Positions 17,296 through 48,216 of a stretch of 51,552 nt of DNA are shown piece by piece. Source of the stretch: Candidatus Micrarchaeota archaeon (GTDB lineage: Archaea > Micrarchaeota > Micrarchaeia > Anstonellales > Bilamarchaeaceae); contig JAFGPA010000014.1 in the NCBI GenBank assembly GCA_016926175.1, positions 1-51,552 on the forward strand, given 5' to 3'. The notes under the pieces are model-generated. The model saw only the letters and a list, made by a program, of their open reading frames with translations. It had not been told where the DNA came from and ran no database searches. Position 1 is the stretch's first letter, and each line of letters starts with the position of its first letter. The translations under genes and the position numbers were made by a program.

Positions 17296-17367
17296 ATTTA
17301 CACTCTCAAAGATTAGCCTTTTTATTCTTATATTCATAAGTATATTATTAAAAATAGGAGATAACTC
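17296..17367. promoter_or_regulatory. A/T-rich divergent intergenic region (aspS operon to the left, membrane-paralog array to the right) with TATA-like boxes and a GGAG ribosome-binding site
   Basis: cctttttattcttatattcataagtatattattaaaaataGGAGataactcATG. The GGAG is at 17357-17360, 7 nt before the ATG at 17368. Confidence 0.35.
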
Positions 17368-18642
17368 ATGGACTTCCTCCTTCCGATACTCATCGCAATG
17401 CCCCCGGCCGCCTTGTCATTCATAGGCGTATCCCTAATGCTCAGCGTGTTTATTGTGGCATTTGCATACATGATCTCATATTTTATGCAAAATCCCCAGC
17501 TTACTGCACTTGCAAAAGAGGAGCTCGCAGCACTTTTTTTCTCGGTTTTCATTATCATGTTCTGGTTTACTTTTGACACTTTTCTAAATTCTATTACTCT
17601 TAATCTTGTGGCCGCGAGCCTGCCTTCGGAATGGCAGGGTTTTGCAGCTGGCGGGGGCCAGATTGGGGGCCTTGCATCAAATCACATTGACCTTGCAATT
17701 GCCAGCATTGAAATAATGATCTCAAAGCTCAAGGATGTATATATCGATCTTTATCTTTATGAAGCGCTTATCGGGTTCCTTTCCACCATCAGCTTCCCGC
17801 TGGGATCTCCGGTTCCAGGACTCAATGTCATATCTTTTTCACTGGCGCCGTTTGTAGGGCTTACCCTTCTGAGCAATGCCCACACAGTTGTTGTCGAATC
17901 AGTGGGGTATCTTATTACCCTGATATGGGCAAAGGAATTCTTCCTTTTATTTGCAAGGGATGCAGTTCCGCTCTTTCTTCTGCCTTTTGGGATAGCCCTG
18001 AGGGCATTCCCATTCCTCAGAAGGACAGGGTCAAGCATAATCGCTCTTTCATTTGCATTCTACTTTGTGTTTCCCTTTGCACTGATACTTTCAAACTACC
18101 TGATATTCGATATCTACAAGCCGGCAGATTTCACTTATAATCCTTCATCGGCAAGTTTCTTTGGATCCGAAGCGACAATAGATGGTGCAGAGGACACAGT
18201 CGAACAGTCAAAGGACCCGACCAGCCATCTGCTTGGGGAGTTTGAAGCTCCAAGCATTGTGGAGACTGCACAGGGCGAAAGCGATAGTGAATGCTATGGG
18301 AACTATCTTACAAGGTTCTTCTGCAGTGCCAAGCATCTTGCAAATACTGCAGTTGACGCAGTAACCGGATTCATCAGCACAATCTGGAATATCTGGAAAT
18401 TCATGATGGGCATGACAGGGGATTTCTTCTTTACCGGCTTCAATAATCCGCTTATGCCTCCAAGCACTTCTGCAGGCCTTTACTATTTCATCATCCGTGA
18501 GCTGACAATATTAAGCCCATTCATAATACTTGTAATGTTTACCACGGTTCTTGAAATAATCATAACAGTCACAATGTACAGGAACGTATCCCTGCTGATC
18601 GGCGGTGAAGCCGAAATAATAGGACTTACAAAGATCGTGTAG
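17368..18642 (+). CDS. Uncharacterised polytopic membrane protein, array paralog 1 (subtype A)
   Basis: 424 aa, multiple hydrophobic helices. Block A QNPQLTALAKEEL. Block B LRAFPFLRRTGSSIIALSFAFYFVFP (from 17998). C-terminus GGEAEIIGLTKIV. Confidence 0.8.
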   Translation: MDFLLPILIAMPPAALSFIGVSLMLSVFIVAFAYMISYFMQNPQLTALAKEELAALFFSVFIIMFWFTFDTFLNSITLNLVAASLPSEWQGFAAGGGQIGGLASNHIDLAIASIEIMISKLKDVYIDLYLYEALIGFLSTISFPLGSPVPGLNVISFSLAPFVGLTLLSNAHTVVVESVGYLITLIWAKEFFLLFARDAVPLFLLPFGIALRAFPFLRRTGSSIIALSFAFYFVFPFALILSNYLIFDIYKPADFTYNPSSASFFGSEATIDGAEDTVEQSKDPTSHLLGEFEAPSIVETAQGESDSECYGNYLTRFFCSAKHLANTAVDAVTGFISTIWNIWKFMMGMTGDFFFTGFNNPLMPPSTSAGLYYFIIRELTILSPFIILVMFTTVLEIIITVTMYRNVSLLIGGEAEIIGLTKIV

Positions 18643-18644
18643 CC

Positions 18645-20159
18645 ATGAAGAAATTATTTTTGTTTTTGCTGACGGTTTCCATTGCGCTGGCGCAGGGCCC
18701 ATCAGAAATACTTATTGAACAGCTTTCCATAATCTATGCAATAGCCGGGGCCATGATAATGCTCATGGTTGTTCTTGCAGCAGCAGCCTATGTTATAGGA
18801 AACTTTTTTGGTGCCGAGACCAGGGCAAAAGCGACCGTGTGGGCGCAGGGAATGCTTGTTGCAGCCGGCATATCAGTTATGGCAATAGTGATGATGAATT
18901 TTATCGTTCCCGGTATCCTGCAGGGCGGATCGCAAGGTGATATAGAAGTGGTTACTCTTGCAGACCAGCTAAGGCAGCTTGGCCAGACCGTACTTGCAAG
19001 CCTGATAGTCCTGCTTGTTGTTCTTTCTGCAGTAGCATATGTTGTAGGGCAGGTTACCGGAGCAGAAACAAGGGCAAAGGCGACTGTATGGGCTACAAAC
19101 CTTCTTACCGGGGCCATTATCGCATCAGTAATCTATGCCCTGCTTTTCATGCTGCTCACAAATTTCAGGGGACTTCTTGCCGGAACACCCGTGGGCCAGT
19201 ATGCTGACGTCATAATAATAGTTGCATTTTTCGTATCTTTCTTCATTCTTATCACATACCTTCTCTCAAAAGTTTTCAAAATCCCTGAATGGGAGGCCTA
19301 TCTTAGCGTGGAGATGTCCAATCTTATATCCTCATTCTTTATTGTTGTTTTCGTGGTCGGACTGTTTGCTGCAGGGACTGCGGTTTCCCTTATGTTCGGC
19401 GCGGATCCAAGCCCGCCCAAGGCTGCAATAGCTTATCTGCGCAACGATGTAATCGAAAGCGTTCTCCAGGGCCTCATAGATGTTTACAAGATCCAGGCAT
19501 GCACCTCAATATTAAACACAATCAGCAGGAGAATAGGCGAATTTGTCCTTACATCCACCTACAAGGTCTTTCCCGGAATCGATACTTTTGTCAATATCAC
19601 CAGCATGCTTGCCATGGGGCTGGTTTCTGTTTATGCAAGCCTCTCGGTGCAGGTAGCGCTTCTTTATCTTGTGGATCAGACAATGGTGAATTTCATCCTT
19701 CCTGCAGGCCTTATCCTGCGGTTCTTCCCGCCTACCCGTGATGCAGGGGCATTCCTTATCTCGCTTGCCTTTGGCTTTCAGATAATATTTCCGACAACCT
19801 ATCTGCTGAACGGAATGATTTTCAATGAAATAGGCGCGACTGTCTATGAGTCGTCAGCCGCCACATTTGTTATACAGGATGTCTGCGGTCCTTTCAAATA
19901 TGGCCTTTACGGTGTTGTGATAAATCCAAGCGTCAATCCGGTCTTCAGCTTCTTTCCCGGCGGACAGGCTGCAGGAACTATACTTGCACAGATCTTCTCA
20001 GAAGGATTGCTGAATCTCATGACAATGGGCCAGTTCACGGTTTTCATGGAACAGATATCAAAGCTTTCACTGCTTTCACTGTTCCTTCCTGCGCTCTCGA
20101 TGCTTGTTACCATAGCTTTCATAAATGCTATGACCAAATTTATTGTTGGAAAGATGTGA
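18645..20159 (+). CDS. Uncharacterised polytopic membrane protein, array paralog 2 (subtype B), with signal-peptide-like N-terminus and duplicated two-helix module
   Basis: 504 aa. N-terminus MKKLFLFLLTVSIALAQG. GAETRAKATVWA occurs twice. Block B LRFFPPTRDAGAFLISLAFGFQIIFP (from 19716). Starts 2 nt after the paralog 1 stop. Confidence 0.8.
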   Translation: MKKLFLFLLTVSIALAQGPSEILIEQLSIIYAIAGAMIMLMVVLAAAAYVIGNFFGAETRAKATVWAQGMLVAAGISVMAIVMMNFIVPGILQGGSQGDIEVVTLADQLRQLGQTVLASLIVLLVVLSAVAYVVGQVTGAETRAKATVWATNLLTGAIIASVIYALLFMLLTNFRGLLAGTPVGQYADVIIIVAFFVSFFILITYLLSKVFKIPEWEAYLSVEMSNLISSFFIVVFVVGLFAAGTAVSLMFGADPSPPKAAIAYLRNDVIESVLQGLIDVYKIQACTSILNTISRRIGEFVLTSTYKVFPGIDTFVNITSMLAMGLVSVYASLSVQVALLYLVDQTMVNFILPAGLILRFFPPTRDAGAFLISLAFGFQIIFPTTYLLNGMIFNEIGATVYESSAATFVIQDVCGPFKYGLYGVVINPSVNPVFSFFPGGQAAGTILAQIFSEGLLNLMTMGQFTVFMEQISKLSLLSLFLPALSMLVTIAFINAMTKFIVGKM

Positions 20160-20160
20160 T

Positions 20161-21543
20161 ATGGCTACTGTACTGGATTTTTGGGGGGCATGGCTGCCTG
20201 TTGCCGGTGCTGCAATGGGACTTACAGTCGTAATCATATCCATTATCTGGATGCTTTCAGAACTCCTGCAGAATGACAAGATGAAGGGCTGGGCCAAGAT
20301 GGAGCTTGTTGAGGTTTTCTATTCTGCAATCATTCTTTCCATGGCAATTACCGGACTTCCTATAATTGACAATGTTATAAAGACTGCCCTTATAGGGGAT
20401 GGCGGCAGTGCAATGACCTGGGTGCAGTATGAAGTTGATGGAGCAGTACAGCCATGGCAGCTTACCAACATCTGCAATTTTCAGGATGACCGCATAGGAG
20501 CGGCAGAAACTTCGGTTTATCACGGCGTACAGTCCTGCCACATGCGGCTTGGCATATGGTATCTGCGGGAGATATTCGATGAGGCAAAAAGGTTTGCATT
20601 TGACATTTATCTCAGCTATATATTCACTTCCATGCTCGCAGAATTTACCATCAACATAGAATTCATTTTTGAAAAGGCAGGGTTCTTTACATTCACCCCC
20701 TGGAAGGGTTTCTTTACAATGGGCAATACAATAAAGGCACAGGTGTTTGACTGGGCCATAAAAATCATGATGATCACCAAATTCCAGGAAATCCTGCTGC
20801 GTTTCATTGCCGTTGCCCTGTTCCCCGCACTGTTTGTGATGGGAGTAATACTAAGGACATTTGCATTTACCAGAAGGCTTGGAGGTCTTCTTCTTGCCAT
20901 GGCACTGGCGCTTTATTTCTTTTATCCTGCTTTCTATGCATTCGGGGCAATAGTGATGATGGACATCAAGAATGATCCGGCTGTCCGCAATGCATGGCTC
21001 TCTCCTGACAATCCCGCCAACCCCGGAAACTACGATATTGATCCATTTACAGGGCCAGAGGATTACCCCAATCCGCCCATAGCAAATACTATGTACATGC
21101 AGGGCAACTTTTCCATGATAGGAGGTGACGGCAATTTCAATACTGAAGAAGCCTCGCGGAGCCTTGAACGGTATGAAGGCTATACTGATGCACAGTATTT
21201 CAATGCCCTGGAACAAAAGGAGGACGGCACCACATTCACATTCAATCTTGGGGACCGCACAGCCTATGAGCAGTCCACTGATGAAGAAAGAAAGGCGGCA
21301 TACCAGAATGCATATTCCAAAGGCCTGGAATGGTTTAATGACGTTTCAAAGGAAAACAAGTTTGACCGATTCGTCACATTTGCATGGGAGCCAAACGGGC
21401 CCATAGATACTCTTTCAAGAATCACATTCTGGTCATTGTTCTTCTCGTTTTTCAGTATAATAGGGACCATAGCGGTAATCCGGTCGCTGTCGATAACCTT
21501 CGGCGGTGACATTGAGATTGCAGGACTTACGAGGCTGATATGA
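20161..21543 (+). CDS. Uncharacterised polytopic membrane protein, array paralog 3 (subtype A)
   Basis: 460 aa from the ATG at 20161 (1 nt after the paralog 2 stop). Block A QNDKMKGWAKMEL. Block B LRTFAFTRRLGGLLLAMALALYFFYP (from 20851). C-terminus FGGDIEIAGLTRLI. Confidence 0.8.
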   Translation: MATVLDFWGAWLPVAGAAMGLTVVIISIIWMLSELLQNDKMKGWAKMELVEVFYSAIILSMAITGLPIIDNVIKTALIGDGGSAMTWVQYEVDGAVQPWQLTNICNFQDDRIGAAETSVYHGVQSCHMRLGIWYLREIFDEAKRFAFDIYLSYIFTSMLAEFTINIEFIFEKAGFFTFTPWKGFFTMGNTIKAQVFDWAIKIMMITKFQEILLRFIAVALFPALFVMGVILRTFAFTRRLGGLLLAMALALYFFYPAFYAFGAIVMMDIKNDPAVRNAWLSPDNPANPGNYDIDPFTGPEDYPNPPIANTMYMQGNFSMIGGDGNFNTEEASRSLERYEGYTDAQYFNALEQKEDGTTFTFNLGDRTAYEQSTDEERKAAYQNAYSKGLEWFNDVSKENKFDRFVTFAWEPNGPIDTLSRITFWSLFFSFFSIIGTIAVIRSLSITFGGDIEIAGLTRLI

Positions 21544-22757
21544 TGGGAAAATCTATCCTGCTGCCGCTTATTCTCCTTTTGCTTATGCCTTTTTCTTTTG
21601 CCGCTTCGCAGGGTGACATGGGCGATTTCTTTGATGAAACCGTTGACAGCATGGAAACACAGGGCCAGCTCTGGCTGGAAGGGCAGGCAGCCGGACTTGG
21701 AACTGGCGGGGCAGTATTCGGAAGCCTTCTTGAGACATTCAGCCCGTCACAGTGCGGCGATTCATGGATTACAACTACGAATATTTTCGGTACATGGATT
21801 GCACCAGTAGCACTGACGATAATGATAGTTGTCATAGGAATCGCAATTCTTTACATGGCAGGGCAGCTTTTCAGCTCCCCGAACCTGATTGCAATATCAA
21901 AGGAGGAGGCGTTCCAGCTTGGCCTTACTGTTTCCAAGCTCATAATAATCATAGCCGTGCTCAACTCCGGCGAACTCTGGTACAGAATCGCAAGCGCCGG
22001 CATTGCAGATCCAGTTTATGCAAACAACAATACCATGATCGATGCCTCCATGGCTTTTTCAAGGCTCATGGCAAAGGAAATGATCGACCACTATTCAATG
22101 CTTCTTATCTACAACATGGTGATCCACACTATATTCTCATCAACGATGTGGTTCGGCGTTACCTGGCGTGCCATGTATTCCTTCAATCTTGGCCCTGTGC
22201 TCAAACCGCTGATAGATATAGTCGGAAGCGCACTCCAGTTTTTATCGCTTGGAGTAAGCGAATGGATGCTGCACATAATAACATTGTGCATCCTGAAAAA
22301 ATGGGCCTGGGGGCTGTTTATCCCAGTCGGAATCCTGCTTCGTTCCATTCCCTATACGCGAGGGGGAGGGGAGGCTCTGCTATCCCTTACATTCGCCCTC
22401 ATACTTTTCTACCCTTTCATGTTTCTTTTTGATTATGAAGTCCACAAAGTCATGAAGTATAACCTTACTGATGCAAAACATGCAATGGGCGCATTCCTTG
22501 AAAAGAGCGGACTGCTTGCAGTTTTCGGAACAGTGCTTATAATGGTATTTCTTCTTGCAGGCGTATTTGTTCCGTTCTTCCTTGGCGGAGCCCTGTCTCT
22601 TGTATTTGAATTGATACGGAGTGCCGTCTATTATATAGTTATAATGAGCCTCCTATTGCCATTCCTGAACATTTTCATTACACTTACGGCAGCCAAAGAA
22701 ATGGCTAACTTCTCGAGAGTTGATGTGAACTTCCTCTCATTCCTGAAGATCATCTGA
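21540..22757 (+). CDS. Uncharacterised polytopic membrane protein, array paralog 4 (subtype B), signal-peptide-like N-terminus
   Basis: 405 aa. N-terminus MMGKSILLPLILLLLMPFSFAASQG. Block B LRSIPYTRGGGEALLSLTFALILFYP (from 22338). C-terminus FSRVDVNFLSFLKII. ATGA overlap with paralog 3. Confidence 0.8.
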   Translation: MMGKSILLPLILLLLMPFSFAASQGDMGDFFDETVDSMETQGQLWLEGQAAGLGTGGAVFGSLLETFSPSQCGDSWITTTNIFGTWIAPVALTIMIVVIGIAILYMAGQLFSSPNLIAISKEEAFQLGLTVSKLIIIIAVLNSGELWYRIASAGIADPVYANNNTMIDASMAFSRLMAKEMIDHYSMLLIYNMVIHTIFSSTMWFGVTWRAMYSFNLGPVLKPLIDIVGSALQFLSLGVSEWMLHIITLCILKKWAWGLFIPVGILLRSIPYTRGGGEALLSLTFALILFYPFMFLFDYEVHKVMKYNLTDAKHAMGAFLEKSGLLAVFGTVLIMVFLLAGVFVPFFLGGALSLVFELIRSAVYYIVIMSLLLPFLNIFITLTAAKEMANFSRVDVNFLSFLKII

Positions 22758-22766
22758 GGGCATTCC

Positions 22767-23858
22767 ATGGCACTTTGCACACCTGATTCAATTGTCGGAT
22801 ATGGCTGCGGCGGGAACGGCCTGGAATTCTTTGCGCTGTCTGCAGGTGCAGCCCTGGTAACATCGGCAGCCCTGCTTGCAGGCATGTATCTCTGGGCCAC
22901 ATTCTTCAGAAACCAGCAGATGGATGCTTTTGTGAAAACAGAGCTTTATGAGCTTTTCATTTCAGCCATTCTTGTGGTCATGCTTGGAATTGCGGTTGCT
23001 GCAATGGTAAATATAAAAGTCAGCACCATCATACCCCAGGCTCTCTGGCCTGAAGACATATCCTCAGATACGACAATATATGCGGCCAGCGGAATGTATT
23101 TTGAAAAAGTAGGGAATGACATGAAGGACTGGCTCAGGGTCAATTATTTCATCAACACATATGTTGACCAGGTGGCGTCTGTAACTCCATATACCCGGCC
23201 TCTGGGGGTTGGTCTTGTAGCATCTCCAATGGCAGGGCTTGCATCGCCAATCAAATCACTGCTTTACAATATGACTGTAGCGCTTTCCATTGCATTCATA
23301 ATAAATTCCGCACAGAGCCTGGTCTATGTTTTTGCATTGCAGGCATTCCTGAAATACTATCTTCCGCTGGGGATATTCTTCCGGTGCTTTACTCCAACAA
23401 GAAGGCTTGGAGGGGCACTGATAGGGGTTGCATGCGCATTCCTTTTTGTTTTCCCGGCGCTTATCACGCTTTCCTACAGCATGTTCTACAACAGGGACAG
23501 CGGCCCTCTGGTTTCCTTCGGAAGCGTTGTCCAGCAGTATTTCTTCACCGACACATCCACAGGAAGCTTTTGGGGGCATTTCAGGGATTTCTATCATTCA
23601 AAGTTCACAGATGTTGGGACAAGCGTTACAGATATCATGGCAGTGGGATTCGGAAGCATAGGAGAACTGTTCCAGAAGCTTCTGGGCAATATATTATTTG
23701 TTATAATGATGTTTCCAATCACCATCGTATCGATGGCATTTGCAATAGGATTTGTAATTCCTGCATTCAATATCCTTATATTCACAGCTGTCGCCAAGAA
23801 TCTCAGCAAAAGTTTTGGCGATGAGATTGATGTGACATCGCTTACGAGGCTGATATGA
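22767..23858 (+). CDS. Uncharacterised polytopic membrane protein, array paralog 5 (subtype A)
   Basis: 363 aa. Block A RNQQMDAFVKTEL. Block B FRCFTPTRRLGGALIGVACAFLFVFP (from 23379). C-terminus FGDEIDVTSLTRLI. Confidence 0.8.
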   Translation: MALCTPDSIVGYGCGGNGLEFFALSAGAALVTSAALLAGMYLWATFFRNQQMDAFVKTELYELFISAILVVMLGIAVAAMVNIKVSTIIPQALWPEDISSDTTIYAASGMYFEKVGNDMKDWLRVNYFINTYVDQVASVTPYTRPLGVGLVASPMAGLASPIKSLLYNMTVALSIAFIINSAQSLVYVFALQAFLKYYLPLGIFFRCFTPTRRLGGALIGVACAFLFVFPALITLSYSMFYNRDSGPLVSFGSVVQQYFFTDTSTGSFWGHFRDFYHSKFTDVGTSVTDIMAVGFGSIGELFQKLLGNILFVIMMFPITIVSMAFAIGFVIPAFNILIFTAVAKNLSKSFGDEIDVTSLTRLI

Positions 23859-24934
23859 TGGGTTTCGGATCAAGCTTTCTGAATACTGCGGATTTTACCA
23901 CTCTTTCCATGGCAGCCGCAGCCATCTCTGTCATAGCTTCATCCATGCTTATCATGATTTCAAGGCTGTTTGCACTAAAGGATCTTGAGCAGGTTGCAAA
24001 AACAGAATTCGTCTATGCAGCATCAACAGTCTTCATAGTCGTGATGGTTCTTGCCATTGTCAACGTTGGAGAGCGGGCCCTTGCAGCTCCGGATTCATCA
24101 CTTGCCAGAAGCCTTTACCTTATATCCTTCGGTTGCCCTGTTAACAGCATTGCCGTCTTTGATGCAAATACCCTGATCGACTGGATGAAACTTTATCTTG
24201 AAACTCCTGCAAAATGCGTGCAGTCATTCATGGTTGTTCTTTACGGCCTCAGCGTGCCTGTTGAGGCAATGGCATCAGTTTACATGGAAATATTCATGAG
24301 CGAGCATGCTTCCGGGTTCGGCGTGAAATGGATTGCAGAGCGTATAACAAACACAACCCAGTCGATGTCATTCTACATGTACATGTTTTACCTTCTTGTT
24401 CATGTCCTTAATTTTGTTAAGGGCTATGCAGGATTCTTCTTTTCCATAGGAGTGATACTGCGTGCATTTCCGCCTACGCGGGGAGGGGGGGCATACCTTA
24501 TGGCCATATCCTTCGGCCTTTATTTTGTCTTCCCGCTGGCATACATACTTGTGGCAACTATGGCGCTGCCGCCTTCTGATATAGTGGTTCCTGAAATGAC
24601 AACCGACATGGCAGGTTCCCAGGTCTGCCAGAGCAGGGACGGCAATTTCCAGTATATCTGCGCCCTGCCTGAAGTTACAAGCCCCCAGGACTACGGCTGC
24701 GGAGCATCCATCGGAAAAATGAACGACTTCCAGGCGCAGCTTGAGGAAAACGCGTCCATCCTTGAAAATATGTTCAATTCCAAGATCCTCAGCTTTACAA
24801 GGCATCTTATTTCTGCAATCTGCATACTGCCAATGATTTCCATGGTGATTCTGCTTACATTTGTGCTCAACGCAACAAATCTTTTTGGCGGCAACATACC
24901 TGAAATCGGAAGAGGGCTTGTGAAGCTCATCTAG
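23855..24934 (+). CDS. Uncharacterised polytopic membrane protein, array paralog 6 (subtype B)
   Basis: 359 aa. Block A LKDLEQVAKTEF. Block B LRAFPPTRGGGAYLMAISFGLYFVFP (from 24458). C-terminus FGGNIPEIGRGLVKLI. ATGA overlap with paralog 5. Confidence 0.8.
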   Translation: MMGFGSSFLNTADFTTLSMAAAAISVIASSMLIMISRLFALKDLEQVAKTEFVYAASTVFIVVMVLAIVNVGERALAAPDSSLARSLYLISFGCPVNSIAVFDANTLIDWMKLYLETPAKCVQSFMVVLYGLSVPVEAMASVYMEIFMSEHASGFGVKWIAERITNTTQSMSFYMYMFYLLVHVLNFVKGYAGFFFSIGVILRAFPPTRGGGAYLMAISFGLYFVFPLAYILVATMALPPSDIVVPEMTTDMAGSQVCQSRDGNFQYICALPEVTSPQDYGCGASIGKMNDFQAQLEENASILENMFNSKILSFTRHLISAICILPMISMVILLTFVLNATNLFGGNIPEIGRGLVKLI

Positions 24935-28463: not shown

Positions 28464-28551
28464 ACTACGACTTTTTTCATTTTGTGGCTAAAAAATGAAA
28501 AATACGTCCGGACATATGCCTTTTAAATGATTGCTTCTCAAATGGGATATC

Positions 28552-29253
28552 ATGAGAGCATTCATATTCTCTTTAGATGCCTTTATTGCCTTTACCCTTG
28601 CACTGGTGGCCATTTATTCGCTGATATTCTTTTCAAGCGTGCCATCTTCATACTACTACCTTTTGACACAGGGACACTTCCTTTCACGGGATGTGCTCAT
28701 GGCTTTGTCAACTACAGAATGTACTGATGACTATGGGATATGCGCAGCTTCAGGGTCAGTGCTTGACAATATAGCTTTCCAGAAAAACCAGACCTTCCAG
28801 CAGAATCTTATCATGAATACCGTAGGTGGTATGGTTCCTGACCAGTTTGGCTATCGCGTTGAGATAAGTTCTGATAACGGCAATACGTTTTCCCACATTT
28901 ATGATACGGCCGATAATGCAGATGATCCGCATGCAAAAAGAAGCAGTAAGCTTACCGTTTCCTCCCAGGTTGTTGCATTCGGATATTCAGGAAAAGTGCA
29001 CAAGCTTAATGAGTCGCCATACAACTATCTTTCCTGCAATGGGGGCGGCATAATTGACGAAGACCGGAATCTTATTTATTCAGGAGGTATGTCCGGCTGG
29101 GGCATAATAACCTGCGGAATTCTTGAACTGACCGGAGCCGGAGGAGAAACTGAAAGCATCAGCATAGGAAACATTCATCCGGATAATATTTTTGGAGGGG
29201 AAATAGTGCCATCATCAGATGTGAAAATTGTGAAATTCCTGGTATACATATAA
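28552..29253 (+). CDS. Pilin-like protein with class III (type IV prepilin-like) signal peptide
   Basis: MRA|FIFSLDAFIAFTLALVAIYSLIFF: short charged leader followed by a hydrophobic helix. Cys-containing ectodomain. TATA-like cttttaaatg about 25 nt upstream. Confidence 0.6.
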   Translation: MRAFIFSLDAFIAFTLALVAIYSLIFFSSVPSSYYYLLTQGHFLSRDVLMALSTTECTDDYGICAASGSVLDNIAFQKNQTFQQNLIMNTVGGMVPDQFGYRVEISSDNGNTFSHIYDTADNADDPHAKRSSKLTVSSQVVAFGYSGKVHKLNESPYNYLSCNGGGIIDEDRNLIYSGGMSGWGIITCGILELTGAGGETESISIGNIHPDNIFGGEIVPSSDVKIVKFLVYI

Positions 29254-29260
29254 GGTGATC

Positions 29261-30763
29261 ATGATGGACAAAAAAGGATTTTTATTCACCGTAACTGTCT
29301 TCCTTGTGCTCACCTATATCCTTCTTACCATATCGGTATGGGTAAAGGGCATTGAAGCCTCGGAAAGAACATTTGCGGATTTTTACAAGGAATCTACTGT
29401 TGAGCTTGCCATAGAGCAGATAACACCCGAAAAACTTGACAATGTCACCTACATAATAATGAACCGGAATCTTGCAAGGCTTAATGATCATGTTGTTTAT
29501 GGCCCTGTCAGGGATGCTGAAAGCATAGATCTTGTGCTGGGAGACCTGCTTGCCAACGGCTCCACCAACAGTGATTACTTTTTGGACCGGGGAATTCCTG
29601 ACGAATCAAATTCTTCCCTGGCTGCATGGGCATCAAACCTTAATGCTTCACTTCTTGCAATCGGCGTTTATATAAGCAACTTTGAAGTTTCCAGCTTTAC
29701 AGCATCGCAGAGCGATTACAGGCATTTCAATTATTCATTTAACATAACCCTTCATATGAAGGATTTCACAAACACATCTTCAGTTTCAAGGACATACTCC
29801 ATTGAAAATGAAATCGATATCAGCGGTTATGTTGATGCCGCACTTGCAAGAGAATCAGGCAAATATGGCCAGACAATCTACAGGCAATTCTTCTTCCATG
29901 ATTTCTATGGAAGCCCATCGGACATTGAGGCAAATGAAATCCGGGCAAACATATATGGCGGCCAGGGCTGGCTTTACGGTCCTGTTGCACTTGCAAACGG
30001 AACTGCAGATCATATACAGGAAGCGAGAAACATATTCCCTTCAAACCGGGAACAATATATCCTTGTAGGCACCTTTGACGAAATCAGAGGGCTTGGCCAG
30101 GAATTCTACGGGCAGTTCGGAGGCTACATAATAACAGATGCGCCTGAACAAAGTCCGGACAGCTGCGGCCTTGTTGAAAGCAATACCTTTAGTCCTGTGA
30201 TATGTGATGAAAGCCAGCTTGCAATAGGATTCCCGCGGCTGGACAAGCCATTCATAGTGGCCCCTGGATTCAGGGCTGAAAATGCAGAATTGTGCCCTCT
30301 CCTTGATTCAAGCGGAACCCTGTCAAGATGCCTGCTTTTCATAAACAGCTACGGGATTGATGAAGTTTCACAATCCCCGGAAAGAAAAAGATCTGCCGGT
30401 GATTCAGGTATTTATACTGTTGAAATAGTCCGTGACTATGTTATGTGCGGCTATTACACAAACAATGATGCTGCCCCTTCCTTCCTGCAGAGAATGCTTG
30501 ATGATTCCTATTCCCTTTCAAGTGAACACGGAATCGAGACATTTGTTATTGGCAATTACGCATCTGATGCAGAGGTTTTCGATACCCACAGCAGGCTTGA
30601 CAGGGAACTTTACCATGTTGTCGGGCTTAAGATCCGCGGACTTCCAGGATGCAAGAATGCCCAGTCATGCGACGGCAATGAAATTGTCGGAGTATTCGCT
30701 CTCAGTGAGGATCATCTTGACGATTACGGGCTTGAAGAAATAGCATGCGAGGGGTGCGACTAA
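29261..30763 (+). CDS. Large pilin-like / adhesin-like protein with class III signal peptide
   Basis: MMDKKG|FLFTVTVFLVLTYILL N-terminus. Ectodomain of about 470 aa with several N-x-S/T sites and a Cys-rich C-terminal third. A GTG at 29255 is also possible. Confidence 0.6.
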   Translation: MMDKKGFLFTVTVFLVLTYILLTISVWVKGIEASERTFADFYKESTVELAIEQITPEKLDNVTYIIMNRNLARLNDHVVYGPVRDAESIDLVLGDLLANGSTNSDYFLDRGIPDESNSSLAAWASNLNASLLAIGVYISNFEVSSFTASQSDYRHFNYSFNITLHMKDFTNTSSVSRTYSIENEIDISGYVDAALARESGKYGQTIYRQFFFHDFYGSPSDIEANEIRANIYGGQGWLYGPVALANGTADHIQEARNIFPSNREQYILVGTFDEIRGLGQEFYGQFGGYIITDAPEQSPDSCGLVESNTFSPVICDESQLAIGFPRLDKPFIVAPGFRAENAELCPLLDSSGTLSRCLLFINSYGIDEVSQSPERKRSAGDSGIYTVEIVRDYVMCGYYTNNDAAPSFLQRMLDDSYSLSSEHGIETFVIGNYASDAEVFDTHSRLDRELYHVVGLKIRGLPGCKNAQSCDGNEIVGVFALSEDHLDDYGLEEIACEGCD

Positions 30764-42850: not shown

Positions 42851-43399
42851 CTAATTTGCCTGCGTATTGCCTATCAAAGTTGCAATTGCAATTCTTTCAG
42901 GAGCACCCGGCACTTCATCCGAAAACTTATACTTTATTGCAAGCGCTCCCTTGAAATTGGAGCCTGCAGCAAGCATTACCGGGTTTCCGGCACCATCAAC
43001 GCATATTACTTCCTGCGCTATCTCTGCCCCTGTTGCACCTATGCTGATGCTGGATCCTGAAGGCATGGGCTTGTTTATCATCAGTCCATTGTCAAAATCC
43101 TCTCTTCTTATGTCTCCCGTTGCCTCAGATGAGCAGAGCACTCCGGTTATTATTACGGATTTGCCCTGCTGGTTGTCAAGCTGGAATATCAGTTTTACCT
43201 GGTTATTTTGATCAGAAACAAGCACGTGATTTTTGGTACTGCATCCGAATCCCGGCTGGTTAAACTGACATGTTTCAGGTGCCTGCAATGAAGGCAAAAC
43301 AACTGCAACGAGTATTGCGAGCACTATGAGTATTACAAACAGTGCAAGACCATATGTGATGAGGTATTCCATCACCGCCTGTCCTTTTTTGTGGTTCAT
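42851..43399 (-). CDS. Type IV pilin-like protein (class III signal peptide, Glu at +5); likely structural pilin of the adjacent assembly locus
   Basis: MNHKKG|QAVMEYLITYGLALFVILIVLAILVAVV, then a beta-rich ectodomain of about 140 aa. Last gene of the minus-strand operon. Confidence 0.75.
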   Translation of the reverse strand: MNHKKGQAVMEYLITYGLALFVILIVLAILVAVVLPSLQAPETCQFNQPGFGCSTKNHVLVSDQNNQVKLIFQLDNQQGKSVIITGVLCSSEATGDIRREDFDNGLMINKPMPSGSSISIGATGAEIAQEVICVDGAGNPVMLAAGSNFKGALAIKYKFSDEVPGAPERIAIATLIGNTQAN

Positions 43400-43410
43400 A
43401 TTTCAACACC

Positions 43411-44454
43411 TTATGCTATTGCGCTAAAAAACGCATCTACAATGCTGGTTACAAAGAAGTAAACAACATATGATAATATTAATACAAACGGGAAGTATTT
43501 CATTCCCTGGCCCTTTGAGCCGGTTCTGATGGCACTGACTATGAATGATGATATAAGTGCCGTAACAAATATCGTTGGAATTGAAAACCAGAAGAAATCA
43601 GAAGAGCTTATCACAGGCGCACCTGCAAATCCTCCGAATGATGAGAACGGGGTTCCGCCAAGCCCGGATGTTTCAGGTATGATGTTCTCAAAAACCTGTA
43701 TAAGTTTGGCAGCTACTGCAAAAAGGAACGGGGTTCCGGCAATGGCAGCGAACAAAACAAAAATCTCATAAAGGACAAGCGATGCCGCTATCTCCTTTTT
43801 CATAATTATGGTATTCCTGACGTCATCAGAAGTCCTTTCAAGGACATCAGTCAGCTCGCCTCCAGTTGCAGAAGCCTGCTTGAGAAGCATTATTGTTCTT
43901 TTGAAAACCCTTGAATCAAACCGCATGGCAAGCTTGTCCAGCGTATGCTCAAGCGTTTCGCCGCTGAAAGAGCTTTTCACTATTGCCTTTACTTCATCGG
44001 AAAGCACGCCGAATTCAGGCTTTGCAGAATACCACATGGCCTGGTCAAGCGCCATTCCTGCCTTGATATTTGATGCGACCAGCGTGAGGAAATCCGGCAA
44101 TGCAGTTTCAAGCTTGTTTCTTCTGTTTTCTGCATTCATCAGCAGATATGTGGACAGCAGCGCCATTGTTGACAGGTAAACAAATACAAATGAGAATGCC
44201 AGTGCAGCGGCCGCAAACACCGGAAACGGCAGTTCAAATGAAATTATTTCTGTGACTGCATTATATACGGGCGGATAGAAAAGTATCAGCAAAGTGAGAA
44301 AAACTGTTGCAACTATAGCATTCAGCGCTACATAGCCTGCAAATGAGTCTGCAGGCATGTTAATCCCTGCTATGTTGATTTCTTTTTCAAGGTTCTTGAT
44401 CCGGGTTCTTGTAAAGAAAAGCCTTCCAGCGCTTTCAAACATTGTATCTGTCAT
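43411..44454 (-). CDS. Type IV filament platform protein, single T2SSF domain (TadC/FlaJ-like)
   Basis: LPDFLTLVASNIKAGMALDQAM...LDKLAMRF...LLKQASATGGELTDVLERTSDDVR, flanked by TM helices. Confidence 0.78.
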   Translation of the reverse strand: MTDTMFESAGRLFFTRTRIKNLEKEINIAGINMPADSFAGYVALNAIVATVFLTLLILFYPPVYNAVTEIISFELPFPVFAAAALAFSFVFVYLSTMALLSTYLLMNAENRRNKLETALPDFLTLVASNIKAGMALDQAMWYSAKPEFGVLSDEVKAIVKSSFSGETLEHTLDKLAMRFDSRVFKRTIMLLKQASATGGELTDVLERTSDDVRNTIIMKKEIAASLVLYEIFVLFAAIAGTPFLFAVAAKLIQVFENIIPETSGLGGTPFSSFGGFAGAPVISSSDFFWFSIPTIFVTALISSFIVSAIRTGSKGQGMKYFPFVLILSYVVYFFVTSIVDAFFSAIA

Positions 44455-44463
44455 TTTTACACC

Positions 44464-45339
44464 TCAGATAAGATATTTCGGCCTGGAGCTTTCTATGAAG
44501 CCCAAAAACAGGAACTGTATGAGTGCGATCATCACGAATACTACAAGCAGCAGACCGGAAGAAAATCCGAAGCTTCCTCCGCTTATGGCTGCTACTATCA
44601 CTGTTGCAAGGACTACTCCCAGAGACGGAACTATTATTCCGAATACCATGTAGAACATTACTATCGGAGTGAGCTTGTGGCTGTATTCCTTGAGGGAAAT
44701 AAGCTGCTCTTTTGAAATCTGGTCAAGGACACTTTCAAGTGAGTCGCCTATATCAGCTCCGCTTGAAAGGGCATTGGATATCTGCATCAGCATTCTTGTG
44801 AAATATTTTGACGGGTTATACTGTACTACCTCTCTTATGGCCTGGGTTGTCGGGACACCAAGAACGATCCTGTCCACTATCTTTGCAAATTCCCTGCTTA
44901 CAGAGCCATAGCCTGCTGATGTGCCGACAAATGTGTCAAACAGGGGCATGCCGGATTTAAGTGCAATGACGATGTGCCTTCCTGCAAATACTATCTCATA
45001 GTCAAGCTCCTTTTCCCTTCTGATGCGGGCTGCTTCCGGATATAGCATCAGGTATGAGAAAATCAGCAATGGAATTCCTGCGAGAGGCACTATGAGCATG
45101 AGCAGGAACATCACAATGTCAGATGCAAGATTTCCAGCCATAGCATCAAAGAGCATTATGTATGTTAATGTTATCAGGCCTGCAGATATTAGAACCGTTG
45201 ATGAAACAACCTTTTCAAGGAATTCAACCGGGGCCTGGGGCATCTCAGCAAGCTTCAGTTTCTTCTTAAGCTCGGAATCTCGCGATGCCAGCACTTCGGC
45301 AACTGAAGTGAAAATTCCTTTTGGTCTTTTTTCGTTCAT
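44464..45339 (-). CDS. Type IV filament platform protein, single T2SSF domain (TadB-like)
   Basis: HIVIALKSGMPLFDTF...EFAKIVDRIVLGVPTTQAI...ISNALSSGADIGDSLESVLDQISKEQ with N- and C-terminal TM helices. Confidence 0.78.
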   Translation of the reverse strand: MNEKRPKGIFTSVAEVLASRDSELKKKLKLAEMPQAPVEFLEKVVSSTVLISAGLITLTYIMLFDAMAGNLASDIVMFLLMLIVPLAGIPLLIFSYLMLYPEAARIRREKELDYEIVFAGRHIVIALKSGMPLFDTFVGTSAGYGSVSREFAKIVDRIVLGVPTTQAIREVVQYNPSKYFTRMLMQISNALSSGADIGDSLESVLDQISKEQLISLKEYSHKLTPIVMFYMVFGIIVPSLGVVLATVIVAAISGGSFGFSSGLLLVVFVMIALIQFLFLGFIESSRPKYLI

Positions 45340-45340
45340 G

Positions 45341-46705
45341 CTAGTCCTCCGATCTGAAATATTTGCTTATGGCGCTCTCCTTGAGCCCCTTCTCCTTTGC
45401 GAGGAGGATCTTTGCCTGGGATATGGCTTCTGCCTTTGCAATCTGCTTCCTTTCATATTTCTTGTAGTAGTCTGAATTGTGCGAATGCAGGTAATAAAGA
45501 AGAGTTCCCTCGTCCATGTCATTGATCTCCCTTACGATCAAACTTAAATCCTCCCTTTCATCGCTCTTTTGGAATACGTCCTCTCCAGTGACCTCAATCA
45601 GAGTGTCGATCTCTTTTGCAATTATCTTCTTTATCTTTGCAAATTCTGCAGGATACTGGTTTTCTATGAATTCAATGCGCTCTTCAACTTCACGAAGCGA
45701 TTTCTTGTCCTTGCACGATGTCTTTGCCTTTTCAAGCTCTGCAAGATGCTTCTTTTTAGAGAATCCCTCATATTCGCTTATCACCTGGGGCAGCTGCTCA
45801 ACCATGGAAGTCACGGAAAAAACGAATTTCTCATATATCTCTTTTTTCTGCTGTGGATCATCAGCATTTGAAATGTCATCGTAGAATTTCTTTTTTATTT
45901 CCAGTACCTTATTTTTGTATGAATCAATGATTTTGTCTTTCTGCTGTGCTATTTCGGTTTGCTGTGTTGAAAGTATTGTTGCAATCATTGCAGCCCCTCC
46001 AACCTTTGTTCCTTTTGCCGAAACCAGCATGTTTTTCAGAACAGTTATCTGTACCTTTATCTCAGCCCTCCTGTTGTGGCTTTTCTCCTTGAAAAGCTGC
46101 TTGGTAAGCTCGAGCATCTTTTTCTTGAGAGTTAGTTCATCTATTTTTCCTTCAAGCATTTCCTTTATCTTTTCCTCAACATCTCCATATTTCTGATCAA
46201 CTGCTTCTTCCTGTTTTAGAGCGGGAGGTATTGCCTTTACAACCATTTTTTCAGGTTCCCTTTCTATCTTCTGCACAGGCGTTGTCTCAAACTGAATTTC
46301 TGAGGATTTGGGCCTTTCAAATTCAATATCCTGTTTTGGCTTTTCGAATTCTATTACCGGCGTTTCCACCATCTGCTCCGTTTTTGCCACCTGCTCCGCC
46401 GTTTCCAGCGTTTCTGTGGTCATTTCCTTTAATCTTGATTCAACTTCTGCAGTTTCAACTGTCTGCGCTGCTTCCGGAGCTCCTTTTGCATAGATGTCCA
46501 GCTTTCTTGTGCTTAGGATTTTCTGGGACCTTTGATATTCGTTTATCAGGTCCTGGTAATTAATGTCAACATATTCAGCAGGAGAAAGGTCTATTGTTTT
46601 TTCAATATCTATATCGCCCTCATATGAATTGTATTCAACCGCTTTGCCTTCAAGCCTTTTCGCACTTTCTATCGCTGCCCTAAAATCCTCCAAGCTCATT
46701 TTCAC
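45341..46705 (-). CDS. Hypothetical acidic, coiled-coil-rich cytoplasmic protein embedded in the pilus operon
   Basis: 454-aa ORF with no TM. Short internal repeats IEFEKPKQDIEFERPKSSEIQFE. Sits between the ATPase and platform genes. Start is GTG 46705 or ATG 46699. Confidence 0.55.
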   Translation of the reverse strand: MKMSLEDFRAAIESAKRLEGKAVEYNSYEGDIDIEKTIDLSPAEYVDINYQDLINEYQRSQKILSTRKLDIYAKGAPEAAQTVETAEVESRLKEMTTETLETAEQVAKTEQMVETPVIEFEKPKQDIEFERPKSSEIQFETTPVQKIEREPEKMVVKAIPPALKQEEAVDQKYGDVEEKIKEMLEGKIDELTLKKKMLELTKQLFKEKSHNRRAEIKVQITVLKNMLVSAKGTKVGGAAMIATILSTQQTEIAQQKDKIIDSYKNKVLEIKKKFYDDISNADDPQQKKEIYEKFVFSVTSMVEQLPQVISEYEGFSKKKHLAELEKAKTSCKDKKSLREVEERIEFIENQYPAEFAKIKKIIAKEIDTLIEVTGEDVFQKSDEREDLSLIVREINDMDEGTLLYYLHSHNSDYYKKYERKQIAKAEAISQAKILLAKEKGLKESAISKYFRSED

Positions 46706-48216
46706 ACCTTAAACTCCCAATCCCTGTTTTTTGATACTGCCGCCATCACTTCTTCCGGGTCCTGATAATATCTTGATACAATTGCCCCGACCTGATCGAC
46801 ATTTTCATATTCTTTTCCTACCATCCAGTTGAGGATCTTAATTTTTTCATCGACATCGGATTCAATTTCCTTCTCCCCCATTCCAGAATACAGCGAAAGG
46901 GTATTGGCAAGCCGTTGCATTTTTCCTGATCCCTTTACCTTATCGGTTTTCACATCCCACCTGTAAAGAACATTGGGATTTCCGGTGTTGCTGATTTCTG
47001 CAAATTCAAGCACCCTTCTGATGTTGAATCTCCTGTGCCTGAATGTTACAACAACACCTGCAAGCGCATCAAGCATTTCATGAGGGACATTAATCGGAGG
47101 GTTGGTAAGCCTTGATATTGTCTGCTCTGCGTTGTCCGCGTGCACTGTTGCATATACGCTGTGGCCGGTATGCATTGCTTCGAACATGACTTCTGCTTCC
47201 CTCTGCCTTCTTATTTCTCCAACGACTATTCTGTCAGGCCTCTGCCTTAATGCATTGACCATGAGGTCAAGCATTGTTACTTCGCCCTTTCCTTCAGGAT
47301 TGGGCTCACGGACGGTCATTGGAACCCAGTGAAGGAAAGAGGGCAAGGTAAGCTCTCTTGTGTCTTCTATGCTGATTATCCTCTGGTTTGCAGGTATCAA
47401 ACCTGCCATCGCGTTCAGGAAAGATGTTTTACCGGAACCGGTTCCTCCGGAAACAATTAGCGATAGCTCGTTCTGCATACAAAGCCATATCAGTGCAGCA
47501 ACTTCCGGGGAAACTGTCTTTGATTTTATAAATCCTGTGATTGTCCAGGGATTCTTTGAGAATTTTCTTATTGTAATAGTGTTTCCAAAGGAGGATATCG
47601 GGAACAGCGTTGCATTGACACGGTCTCCAGAAGGCAGGTGGGCATCCAGGGTCGGATTAAGTATGTTTATCTGCCGTCCGACTTTTCTTGCAATCATGGA
47701 TGCATAGTCATATACTATCTCCTCATTCTTCAGTTTCAGGTTTGTTTTGCACCATCCGAATTTCTTATGATAAATCCATACCGGATCGCTTGAATTGTTG
47801 ATTACTACCTCTTCGAGATCGTTGTCTGAAAGAAGCGCCTCTATCTCTCCGAGACCAAGTGTTTTCTGGAGAAGATATACTGCAAGGACCTCTTTTTTGT
47901 CGTCCGGCAGTGAAGGGAAATTTCTTGACAATATTATTTTTGCAGTTGCAAGGAACTTTCCCTTTACCTCTTCAAATTTTTTCGGATCGAGTATGTCTGT
48001 TATGTCAAGTTTCACTTCAGTTACGAGTTCCCCCTTCAGCTTTGTTTCAAGGATGAGTTTTGTGCCCTCTGCAATCCCCGGAATGGTGACCTCATAAAAA
48101 GGAACGAATTCGCTCTTTCTCCTGATTATCTTCACTTCAACAGGCAGCCCTTCACTGCTATATCCATATGCTGAAAGCAATGCGACTTTTGGCCTTTCTT
48201 CAGTTTTTTTAATCAT
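46702..48216 (-). CDS. Type II/IV secretion-family ATPase (FlaI/PilB/TadA-like)
   Basis: Walker A SGGTGSGKTSFLNA, IEDTRELTL, Walker B/Asp box RPDRIVVGEIRR, His box AMHTGHSVYATVHA. The ATG at 48216 overlaps the upstream stop as ATGA. Confidence 0.9.
   Translation of the reverse strand: MIKKTEERPKVALLSAYGYSSEGLPVEVKIIRRKSEFVPFYEVTIPGIAEGTKLILETKLKGELVTEVKLDITDILDPKKFEEVKGKFLATAKIILSRNFPSLPDDKKEVLAVYLLQKTLGLGEIEALLSDNDLEEVVINNSSDPVWIYHKKFGWCKTNLKLKNEEIVYDYASMIARKVGRQINILNPTLDAHLPSGDRVNATLFPISSFGNTITIRKFSKNPWTITGFIKSKTVSPEVAALIWLCMQNELSLIVSGGTGSGKTSFLNAMAGLIPANQRIISIEDTRELTLPSFLHWVPMTVREPNPEGKGEVTMLDLMVNALRQRPDRIVVGEIRRQREAEVMFEAMHTGHSVYATVHADNAEQTISRLTNPPINVPHEMLDALAGVVVTFRHRRFNIRRVLEFAEISNTGNPNVLYRWDVKTDKVKGSGKMQRLANTLSLYSGMGEKEIESDVDEKIKILNWMVGKEYENVDQVGAIVSRYYQDPEEVMAAVSKNRDWEFKV

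Follow-up and report, generated by a model that had tools for sequence, protein, structure and literature searches.

Two identical gene junctions in a six-paralogue membrane-protein operon of Micrarchaeota as the probable outcome of selection for translational coupling

Translational coupling at overlapping or abutting stop and start codons, with a Shine–Dalgarno (SD) motif placed inside the upstream open reading frame (ORF), is a classical feature of operons in bacteria and archaea. Other operons are known to encode the paralogous membrane subunits of a single hetero-oligomer, such as those of FliP/FliQ/FliR and of the Mrp/complex-I antiporter-like subunits. Here, we describe a locus of a Candidatus Micrarchaeota archaeon (assembly GCA_016926175.1, contig JAFGPA010000014.1) that can be compared with both. 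Within the 51,552 nucleotides (nt) that were analysed, hereafter the window, one operon of the Micrarchaeota (DPANN archaea) occupies positions 17368-24934; it encodes six ancient polytopic membrane paralogues, P1 to P6, and two of its junctions, P3/P4 and P5/P6, are identical over 22 nt. We consider it likely that the two 22-mers are identical because the same selection acts on both, on a protein tail, on a ribosome-binding site and on the start of the next gene, which amounts to ordinary translational coupling. As in the classical cases, a GAGG stands 9-12 nt before the downstream ATG at both junctions, stop and start overlap as ATGA / TGATG, selection on synonymous sites is visible, and the internal genes carry an SD motif while the first gene mostly does not. 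Unlike in the classical cases, the SD motif of the array sits in the codons of a strongly conserved C-terminal motif common to the paralogues, so that two junctions of one operon converge on the same 15-22 nt. The coupling mechanism would be a new instance of a familiar type; the proteins belong to an uncharacterised family, encoded by a phylum-wide six-paralogue operon.

The array and its two identical junctions are composed as follows ('A' refers to a subfamily discussed below; lengths are in amino acids, aa).

17368-24934, plus strand: whole array of six tandem paralogous membrane-protein genes
17368-18642, plus strand: P1, 424 aa, first gene, 'A'-type, tail GGEAEIIGLTKIV, with 1:1 orthologues at the same position in Micrarchaeota loci
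18645-20159, plus strand: P2, 504 aa, signal-peptide-like start, N-terminal extension, without the C-terminal motif
20161-21543, plus strand: P3, 460 aa, 'A'-type, tail GGDIEIAGLTRLI
21540-22757, plus strand: P4, 405 aa, signal-peptide-like start, acidic N-terminal extension, tail DVNFLSFLKII
22767-23858, plus strand: P5, 363 aa, 'A'-type, tail GDEIDVTSLTRLI
23855-24934, plus strand: P6, 359 aa, last gene, tail GGNIPEIGRGLVKLI, ending in TAG
21526-21547, plus strand: 22-mer of the P3/P4 junction, CTT ACG AGG CTG ATA TGA + TGGG, with an SD-like GAGG at 21531-21534, the stop TGA at 21541-21543 and in-frame P4 ATGs at 21540 and 21543
23841-23862, plus strand: 22-mer of the P5/P6 junction, the same letters, with GAGG at 23846-23849, the stop TGA at 23856-23858 and in-frame P6 ATGs at 23855 and 23858

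The 22-mer CTTACGAGGCTGATATGATGGG is present exactly twice in the window, and no third copy with up to three mismatches was detected there (none is expected in shuffles). It encodes L-T-R-L-I-stop of the upstream gene and also includes ATG ATG GG, with which the downstream gene (MMG..) begins, with the stop/start overlap ATATGATG at both junctions. Upstream of the 22-mer, where both genes encode the conserved C-terminal motif, 18 of 30 bases are identical in register; downstream only 6 of 30 are, which makes the boundary sharp. An earlier reading of these letters alone, hereafter the sequence-only reading, had noticed this identity, which proved exact. It had taken the 22 nt as a pointer to the duplication of a two-gene unit, preserved since by selection for translational coupling, by an RNA element or by local gene conversion.

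A scan at one genome per species returned 45 Micrarchaeota loci (L001-L045), and across these ~45 genomes synonymous-site conservation is strong at both junctions. When the inter-paralogue junctions are aligned at the nucleotide level, each turns out to be separately conserved: P3/P4 reads ...CTN ACG AGG CTG ATA TGA and P5/P6 reads ...ACG AGG (A/C/T)TG ATA TGA. The last codons of P3 are ACG in 37/40 loci (background 0.24), AGG in 35/35 (0.27), CTG in 29/40 (0.26) and ATA in 30/40 (0.39), followed by TGA in 33/41. Those of P5 are ACG in 34/44, AGG in 44/46 and ATA in 30/44, with TGA in 27/46; its codon -2 mostly encodes Met (ATG in 29 loci, CTG in 8, TTG in 4 and TTA in 5). The third positions of the upstream Gly, Asp, Ile, Glu and Ala codons vary freely among orthologues. 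P6, which has a similar tail (GLVKLI) and no gene downstream, serves as a control: its last five codons are free of synonymous bias (all p > 0.07), and several stop codons are in use (TAG 23, TGA 15, TAA 8). We also noticed that ATA is preferred before a TGA stop in P3, P4 and P5 alike (21538-21543, 22752-22757 and 23853-23858, and their orthologues in L001-L045), a preference not exhibited by P6.

Could these codons be conserved merely through protein-level selection on LTRLI combined with codon bias? The peptide tail is indeed conserved in five of the six paralogues. However, the background frequencies given above for ACG, AGG and CTG contrast with 93-100% for the first two and 73% for CTG at the junction, the comparable tail of P6 is unbiased, and the conserved G, D, I, E and A residues just upstream use varied codons. 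An explanation by protein selection and codon bias alone is thus very improbable.

The reading that we favour is that three constraints would meet at each junction. The first would be the cytoplasmic C-terminal tail L-T-R-[L/M]-I, which is observed to be conserved at the protein level. The second would be an SD-like GAGG, possibly extended to GAGGnTGAT, that is contained within the Thr-Arg-Leu/Met-Ile codons as ACG AGG nTG AT. Our data demonstrate selection on ACG AGG nTG AT at the nucleotide level, and the GAGG would act in ribosome binding. The third would be the TGA stop, which is seen to overlap or abut the next ATG. A ribosome that ends on P3 or P5 would then re-initiate on P4 or P6. Together, these constraints would fix ~16 of the 22 positions, the other six coinciding in the window genome largely by chance, and each junction would be held independently near one optimum. 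Synonymous conservation, the spacing of the GAGG, the stop/start overlap and the unconstrained tail of P6 all point to selection for translational coupling, which the sequence-only reading had listed among its explanations.

The distribution of SD-like motifs agrees with this. We counted SD-like 4-mers at -16..-7 relative to the start and found them at the P3/P4 junction in 92% of loci (35/38), at P5/P6 in 81% (30/37), at P2/P3 in 76%, at P1/P2 in 71% and at P4/P5 in 61%; before P1, the first gene, they are present in only 6/37 loci. The prevalence of the motif at internal junctions and its scarcity before the first gene would fit an equimolar synthesis of six subunits. In the window itself, the P4 stop TGA and the following GGG form an SD-like GAGG (22756-22759) ahead of the P5 ATG at 22767, and a GGAG (17357-17360) lies 8 nt before the P1 ATG. 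The spacer between P1 and the divergent AspRS gene measures 30 nt (17338-17367; ataagtatattattaaaaataggagataactc) and is AT-rich with a TATA-like stretch. Window-wide, SD-like motifs precede 13 of the 28 genes with an ATG start, against a background of 9.6% (p = 6e-7). In most loci the offset between the stop and the nearest in-frame downstream ATG is 0 to +3 nt. A natural control is provided by one distant array, L051, in which the genes are 50-155 nt apart and P5 ends in ACA AGA ATG ATT TAG, without GAGG. Double coding can be excluded as a source of the conservation, since the P4 frame lacks any start codon before 21540 and since relatives differ in the frame that the downstream gene takes with respect to the upstream one. 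These data indicate that Micrarchaeota use SD-led re-initiation inside operons.

Several points weigh against translational coupling as a full explanation, or limit how its evidence is to be read. Binomial p-values for the codons treat related genomes as independent, so that the valid control lies in the neighbouring codons and in P6. We found no rRNA in the window or in the 45 fetched loci; the proposed pairing with the anti-SD rests on the general conservation of CCUCC at the 3' end of 16S rRNA and on the enrichment of the motif. The ATA preference is explained neither by SD pairing nor by an ATG at -3, which is out of frame in many loci. In L053, another distant array, the end of P3 keeps ACG AGG although the called P4 start is located ~137 nt downstream. 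A chance coincidence is still required at the ~6 free positions, which are the third base of the Leu codon, position 10 (C) and the four nucleotides that follow the stop. Under position-independent profiles of the relatives, identity at all 22 positions is rare: we estimate a chance of ~0.002-0.005 for a P3/P4 junction to equal the P5/P6 junction of the window, which is unusual but not extraordinary. Finally, the present results have no direct bearing on the hetero-oligomeric envelope complex that is proposed below.

The rarity of a full match would favour a recent short gene conversion (ectopic repair) in the lineage of the window, by which one junction was copied onto the other. Indeed, among 42 genomes only that of the window reaches 22/22, the next best reaching 20/22, and the profile chance of a full match between two random junctions is as low as 2.8e-5. 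If conversion were at work, the junctions of one genome should resemble each other more than those of different genomes, but the within-genome similarity (15.46/22) barely differs from that between genomes (15.23/22), and at least 20/22 is reached by 4.9% of within-genome pairs versus 4.1% of pairs between genomes. The flanks do not share the identity either: the match ends abruptly on the downstream side, and the partial similarity upstream is explained by the common peptide motif. Moreover, 16 of the 22 positions are fixed throughout the phylum, and homologous recombination tracts of 22 nt or less are unusually short. The closest relative, L001, carries at P5/P6 the same 22-mer as the window, whereas L003 and L009 have P3/P4 junctions that match the window P5/P6 at 21/22 with quite different P5/P6 junctions of their own. 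Gene conversion is thus not borne out in general, and we regard it as unlikely for the window lineage.

A third possibility, raised in the sequence-only reading, is a structured cis-regulatory RNA at the junction, such as a hairpin governing access to the start. In its favour, the predicted folds of 103 nt around each of the two junctions are slightly more stable than those of shuffles (z about -2). However, this stability comes from the flanking coding sequence, which differs between the two junctions, and z is +0.2 for the 62-nt cores of the junctions. For 35 orthologous junctions, RNAalifold yielded a consensus of -1.1 kcal/mol with six pairs and no compensatory change, and Rfam had no match in the array. 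With covariation, local folding and Rfam all negative, an RNA element appears highly improbable, and selection on the tail, the ribosome-binding site and the start codon remains the reading that we retain.

The age of the array bears on the remaining account, in which the 22 nt would be a surviving remnant of the duplication of an original A-B gene pair. P1 to P6 occur in the same order in every one of the 45 loci that is long enough to span the array. Each gene in these loci has an unambiguous best match to one window paralogue, with an ortholog identity of 34-73%, and the next-best paralogue obtains bit scores of only ~40-60. P3 orthologues are 43-74% identical, and P5 orthologues 46-82%, the latter in many metagenome-assembled genomes labelled Candidatus Micrarchaeota, Micrarchaeia or Bilamarchaeum. 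By contrast, the paralogues P2 to P6 show 23-24% identity to P1. The six-gene order extends to eight more distant loci that are long enough to span the array; in the seven arrays listed here, it was judged by best profile and C-terminal motif.

L047 and L048: distant arrays from an archaeon contig of >1 Mb
L049: distant array, placed in Micrarchaeia through its FtsZ cluster
L051: distant array, 35% G+C
L050, L052 and L053: distant arrays with the same six-gene order

Shorter or singleton versions were not seen in relatives: none of the fetched arrays that are complete enough to judge has fewer than six genes, and all have them in order. An exhaustive profile search retrieved 2,756 representative clusters (50% identity) at E <= 1e-3, covering all six paralogue classes; a homologue search with a distant member of 683 aa returned only two matches. 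The data show that the six-fold paralogy and the gene order are older than the radiation of the phylum.

It is true that both copies of the 22-mer lie at A-to-B junctions and that P3 and P5 belong to the same subfamily, as a remnant of pair duplication would predict. Nevertheless, with the order fixed phylum-wide and orthologues and paralogues at the identities given above, the duplications predate the radiation of the Micrarchaeota and are far too old for 22 neutral nt to survive; at such identities, synonymous sites are saturated. The codons just upstream vary freely among orthologues. In addition, where P5 of the window has CTG as codon -2, ATG (Met) is found in most relatives and in the distant arrays, so that the CTG of the window is derived and the perfect match convergent. 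As a pointer to a two-gene duplication, the 22-nt identity therefore failed, and that it could be a duplication remnant is barely credible.

If translational coupling is indeed the cause, an exact repeat between diverged paralogues may arise with neither gene conversion nor an RNA element; it would suffice that, at two junctions, the same 15-20 nt serve at once as the end of a conserved peptide, as a ribosome-binding site and as the next start codon. The locus would then be a clean natural example, with P6 as an internal control, of how translation initiation exerts selection on synonymous sites in a DPANN archaeon. The operon itself may be the more valuable by-product, being present in fixed order in every spanning Micrarchaeota locus and having no detectable relative of known function.

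The sequence-only reading had described the array as three A-B pairs, and this alternation can be judged apart from the 22-mers. The motif differences between odd and even members persist in the group consensus of 34 genomes: the loop motif is RR(L/T)G in odd members versus R(D/G/N)(A/G)G in even members, the Asn of block A is restricted to odd members, and these also carry a strong C-terminal G(G)[DE]x[ED][IV]xxLT[KR]xx. The even members had also been credited with degenerate C-termini. P2 lacks the C-terminal motif entirely; the tails of P4 (DVNF[ML]SFLKII) and P6 are well conserved among their own orthologues and are therefore not degenerate. We found P1, P3 and P5 to be mutual best non-self matches in the same 34 genomes, P1 choosing P3 (34/34), P3 choosing P5 or P1 (34/34) and P5 choosing P3 (33/34). 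The best non-self profile of P2 is P6 in 28/34 genomes, the reverse being true in 16/34, and that of P4 is P1 in 27/34. Profile comparison with hhalign scored odd-odd pairs at 161, 123 and 112, even-even pairs at 97, 102 and 104 and odd-even pairs at 70-125. By sequence-versus-profile scores, the odd/even division ranks first of the ten possible three-against-three splits (249.8 versus 208.8 for the next).

Neighbour-joining on between-group distances recovers the same split, but with a bootstrap of only 30% (Poisson) or 68% (score distance). Discrete shared characters, a count without discriminating power, give two columns for the odd/even split versus three for two other splits. Branching inside A favours (P1,P3) or (P3,P5), and inside B no order emerges. 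P1, P3 and P5 thus form a genuine 'A' subfamily. The even members fare less well, P2 and P6 pairing weakly and P4 being closest to P1; they may constitute a 'B' clade that evolves faster, or may be no more than what is left once 'A' is set apart. The A-B alternation is only half borne out. An ancestral A-B pair that was duplicated twice would be the most economical history. The nearest relatives are located two genes apart and not next to each other, which is what a two-gene duplication predicts, so that this history is plausible, though not demonstrated.

The proteins themselves have no close described counterpart. No Pfam or NCBIfam match at E <= 0.01 was obtained for any of the six, the few matches up to E = 1 lying far below curated thresholds; no family profile had a credible sequence match in the PDB, and we found no description of the six-gene array in the searchable literature. 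Hydropathy suggests a common core of five transmembrane segments (TM1 to TM5), followed by a tail of 12-19 aa. TM1 and TM2 are joined by a short loop that contains an invariant Glu, and TM3 and TM4 by a short basic one with the TR[R]xG motif; the loops between TM2 and TM3 and between TM4 and TM5 are large and acidic. One Glu, two Gly, two Arg and one Pro occupy columns that are invariant or nearly so in all six groups. By the positive-inside rule, the N-terminus would be outside and the tail inside. An outside N-terminus fits the signal-peptide-like starts of P2 and P4, the two members with extensions, and the putative signal peptides which the sequence-only reading had assigned to them agree with both the hydropathy profile and the predicted topology. 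P3 most likely starts at ATG 20161, one base past the P2 stop, and not at TTG 20143, as is also the case in its orthologues. Its Cys 105 and Cys 126, in the first extracellular loop, are invariant in 110 orthologues, which suggests a conserved disulfide or metal site.

The extension of P2 contains a hydrophobic hairpin in two copies, with the motif GAETRAKATVWA at aa 56-67 and 139-150. In this region (aa 1-185; 18645-19200), the signal-peptide-like start is followed by two units that are duplicated in tandem and spaced 83 aa apart. Each unit begins with a long hydrophobic helix, from which the basic loop G-A-E-T-R-A-K-A-T-V-W-A leads to another hydrophobic helix. No Pfam match was found for the N-terminal repeat, the topology of which we take to recall pilin hairpins of the VirB2/TrbC type.

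AlphaFold models of P5 (mean predicted local distance difference test, pLDDT, 83.6; predicted template modelling score, pTM, 0.77) and P3 (pLDDT 89.2, pTM 0.86) are both dominated by very long helices. Foldseek searches with these models against 350,542 PDB chains returned no match with E < 0.08. The recurrent best matches were human TTYH proteins and TrwI/VirB6 of R388 (8rt9_F), with E 0.09-0.3 and template modelling scores (TM-scores) of 0.2-0.36. Together with the fixed operon, the confident models of P3 and P5 offer a well-defined target in the few cultivated Micrarchaeota.

The VirB6/TrbL family, with TrwI of R388, and the archaeal CedA-type subunits of type IV secretion systems (T4SS) are alike to the array proteins in being polytopic and all-helical, with long helices that extend beyond the membrane. 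TrwI ranks first for the P3 model and fourth for the P5 model, at non-significant values (E 0.23-0.32, TM-score 0.22-0.36). VirB6 is a homo-oligomeric platform, and the array differs in having six distinct paralogues instead of one repeated subunit. No match to Pfam TrbL (PF04610) was found in P1 to P6 at E <= 1. A relationship to VirB6 at the sequence level was rejected: hhalign of the six group profiles against TrwI and against a nine-sequence VirB6 alignment (R388 TrwI plus eight plasmid VirB6 homologues) gave probabilities <=0.8%, equal to the reversed-sequence null. No VirB4, VirB2, VirB5 or other T4SS gene adjoins the array, its neighbours being housekeeping genes. The TTYH proteins share with the array proteins, as predicted for these from hydropathy, a five-TM core, an outside N-terminus, an inside C-terminus and two large extracellular helical loops. 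Their structures are the top Foldseek matches of P5, at E >= 0.087 and TM-score <= 0.25, a resemblance of shape only; they belong to a eukaryotic family, and searches of Pfam and of PDB sequences revealed no similarity to the array proteins. As in the FliP/FliQ/FliR or Mrp-type operons, genes for several homologous polytopic proteins adjoin one another in a fixed order and with tight junctions. No homology of the array to any of these was detected, and the assembly of P1 to P6 into one complex is putative.

Some distant arrays contain P3-like genes of 1,145-1,337 aa, with very large insertions. In distant lineages, insertions bring P3-like and P4/P5-like members to lengths of 690-1,340 aa. Giant ORFs without Pfam domains follow the array at L047:14499-22052, L053:12524-19532 and L048:784-4638; in this set of loci they encode 1,307, >2,469 and 3,195 aa. 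Giant ORFs and insertions suggest large surface-exposed domains.

Six paralogues in invariant order, their universal presence in spanning loci, the SD-led junctions and the expanding extracellular loops lead us to infer a hetero-oligomeric envelope complex of fixed stoichiometry. It is conceivable, although we hold it with little confidence, that P1 to P6, as six distinct subunits, build a hitherto undescribed machine of the envelope, essential for Micrarchaeota, that acts as a conduit or anchor for the contact of these obligate symbionts with their hosts. The subunits would then have five TMs each, with extracellular helical bundles, cytoplasmic TRRxG loops and LT[KR]xI tails, and their translation would be coupled. 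The distantly VirB6/TTYH-like shape and the large extracellular insertions and giant ORFs leave a role in host contact open.

The array is flanked, with conserved synteny, by genes for RNA polymerase subunits, AspRS, SurE, a PIN_5 protein, an RNA ligase, CarS and SppA; these housekeeping genes are uninformative on its function. A locus resembling a type IV pilus or archaellum lies further away in the window.

42851-49898, minus strand: whole locus of type IV pilus or archaellum type, at a distance of ~18 kb from the array
46702-48225, minus strand: T2SSE ATPase, ~22 kb from the array
43411-44454, minus strand: T2SSF platform protein, probably also 44464-45339
45341-46705 and 48213-49898, minus strand: unannotated ORFs

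In L049, a lone gene for a T2SSE-family ATPase (L049:12448-13764) directly follows P6 on the same strand. We rejected the T2SSE ATPase as a conserved partner of the array: it adjoins it in this locus only (1 of ~50), and the protein is 29% identical to the T2SSE of the window.

Two further observations concern other parts of the window. The adjacent ORFs at 28531-29253 and 29255-30763 (plus strand; 240 and 502 aa) had no match in Pfam or NCBIfam and are conserved in ~20 Micrarchaeota loci. ARAGORN in default mode reported no tRNA in the window; Rfam places one at 1546-1668 on the minus strand (54.8 bits), and with 123 nt for a model of 71 positions this tRNA probably contains an intron.

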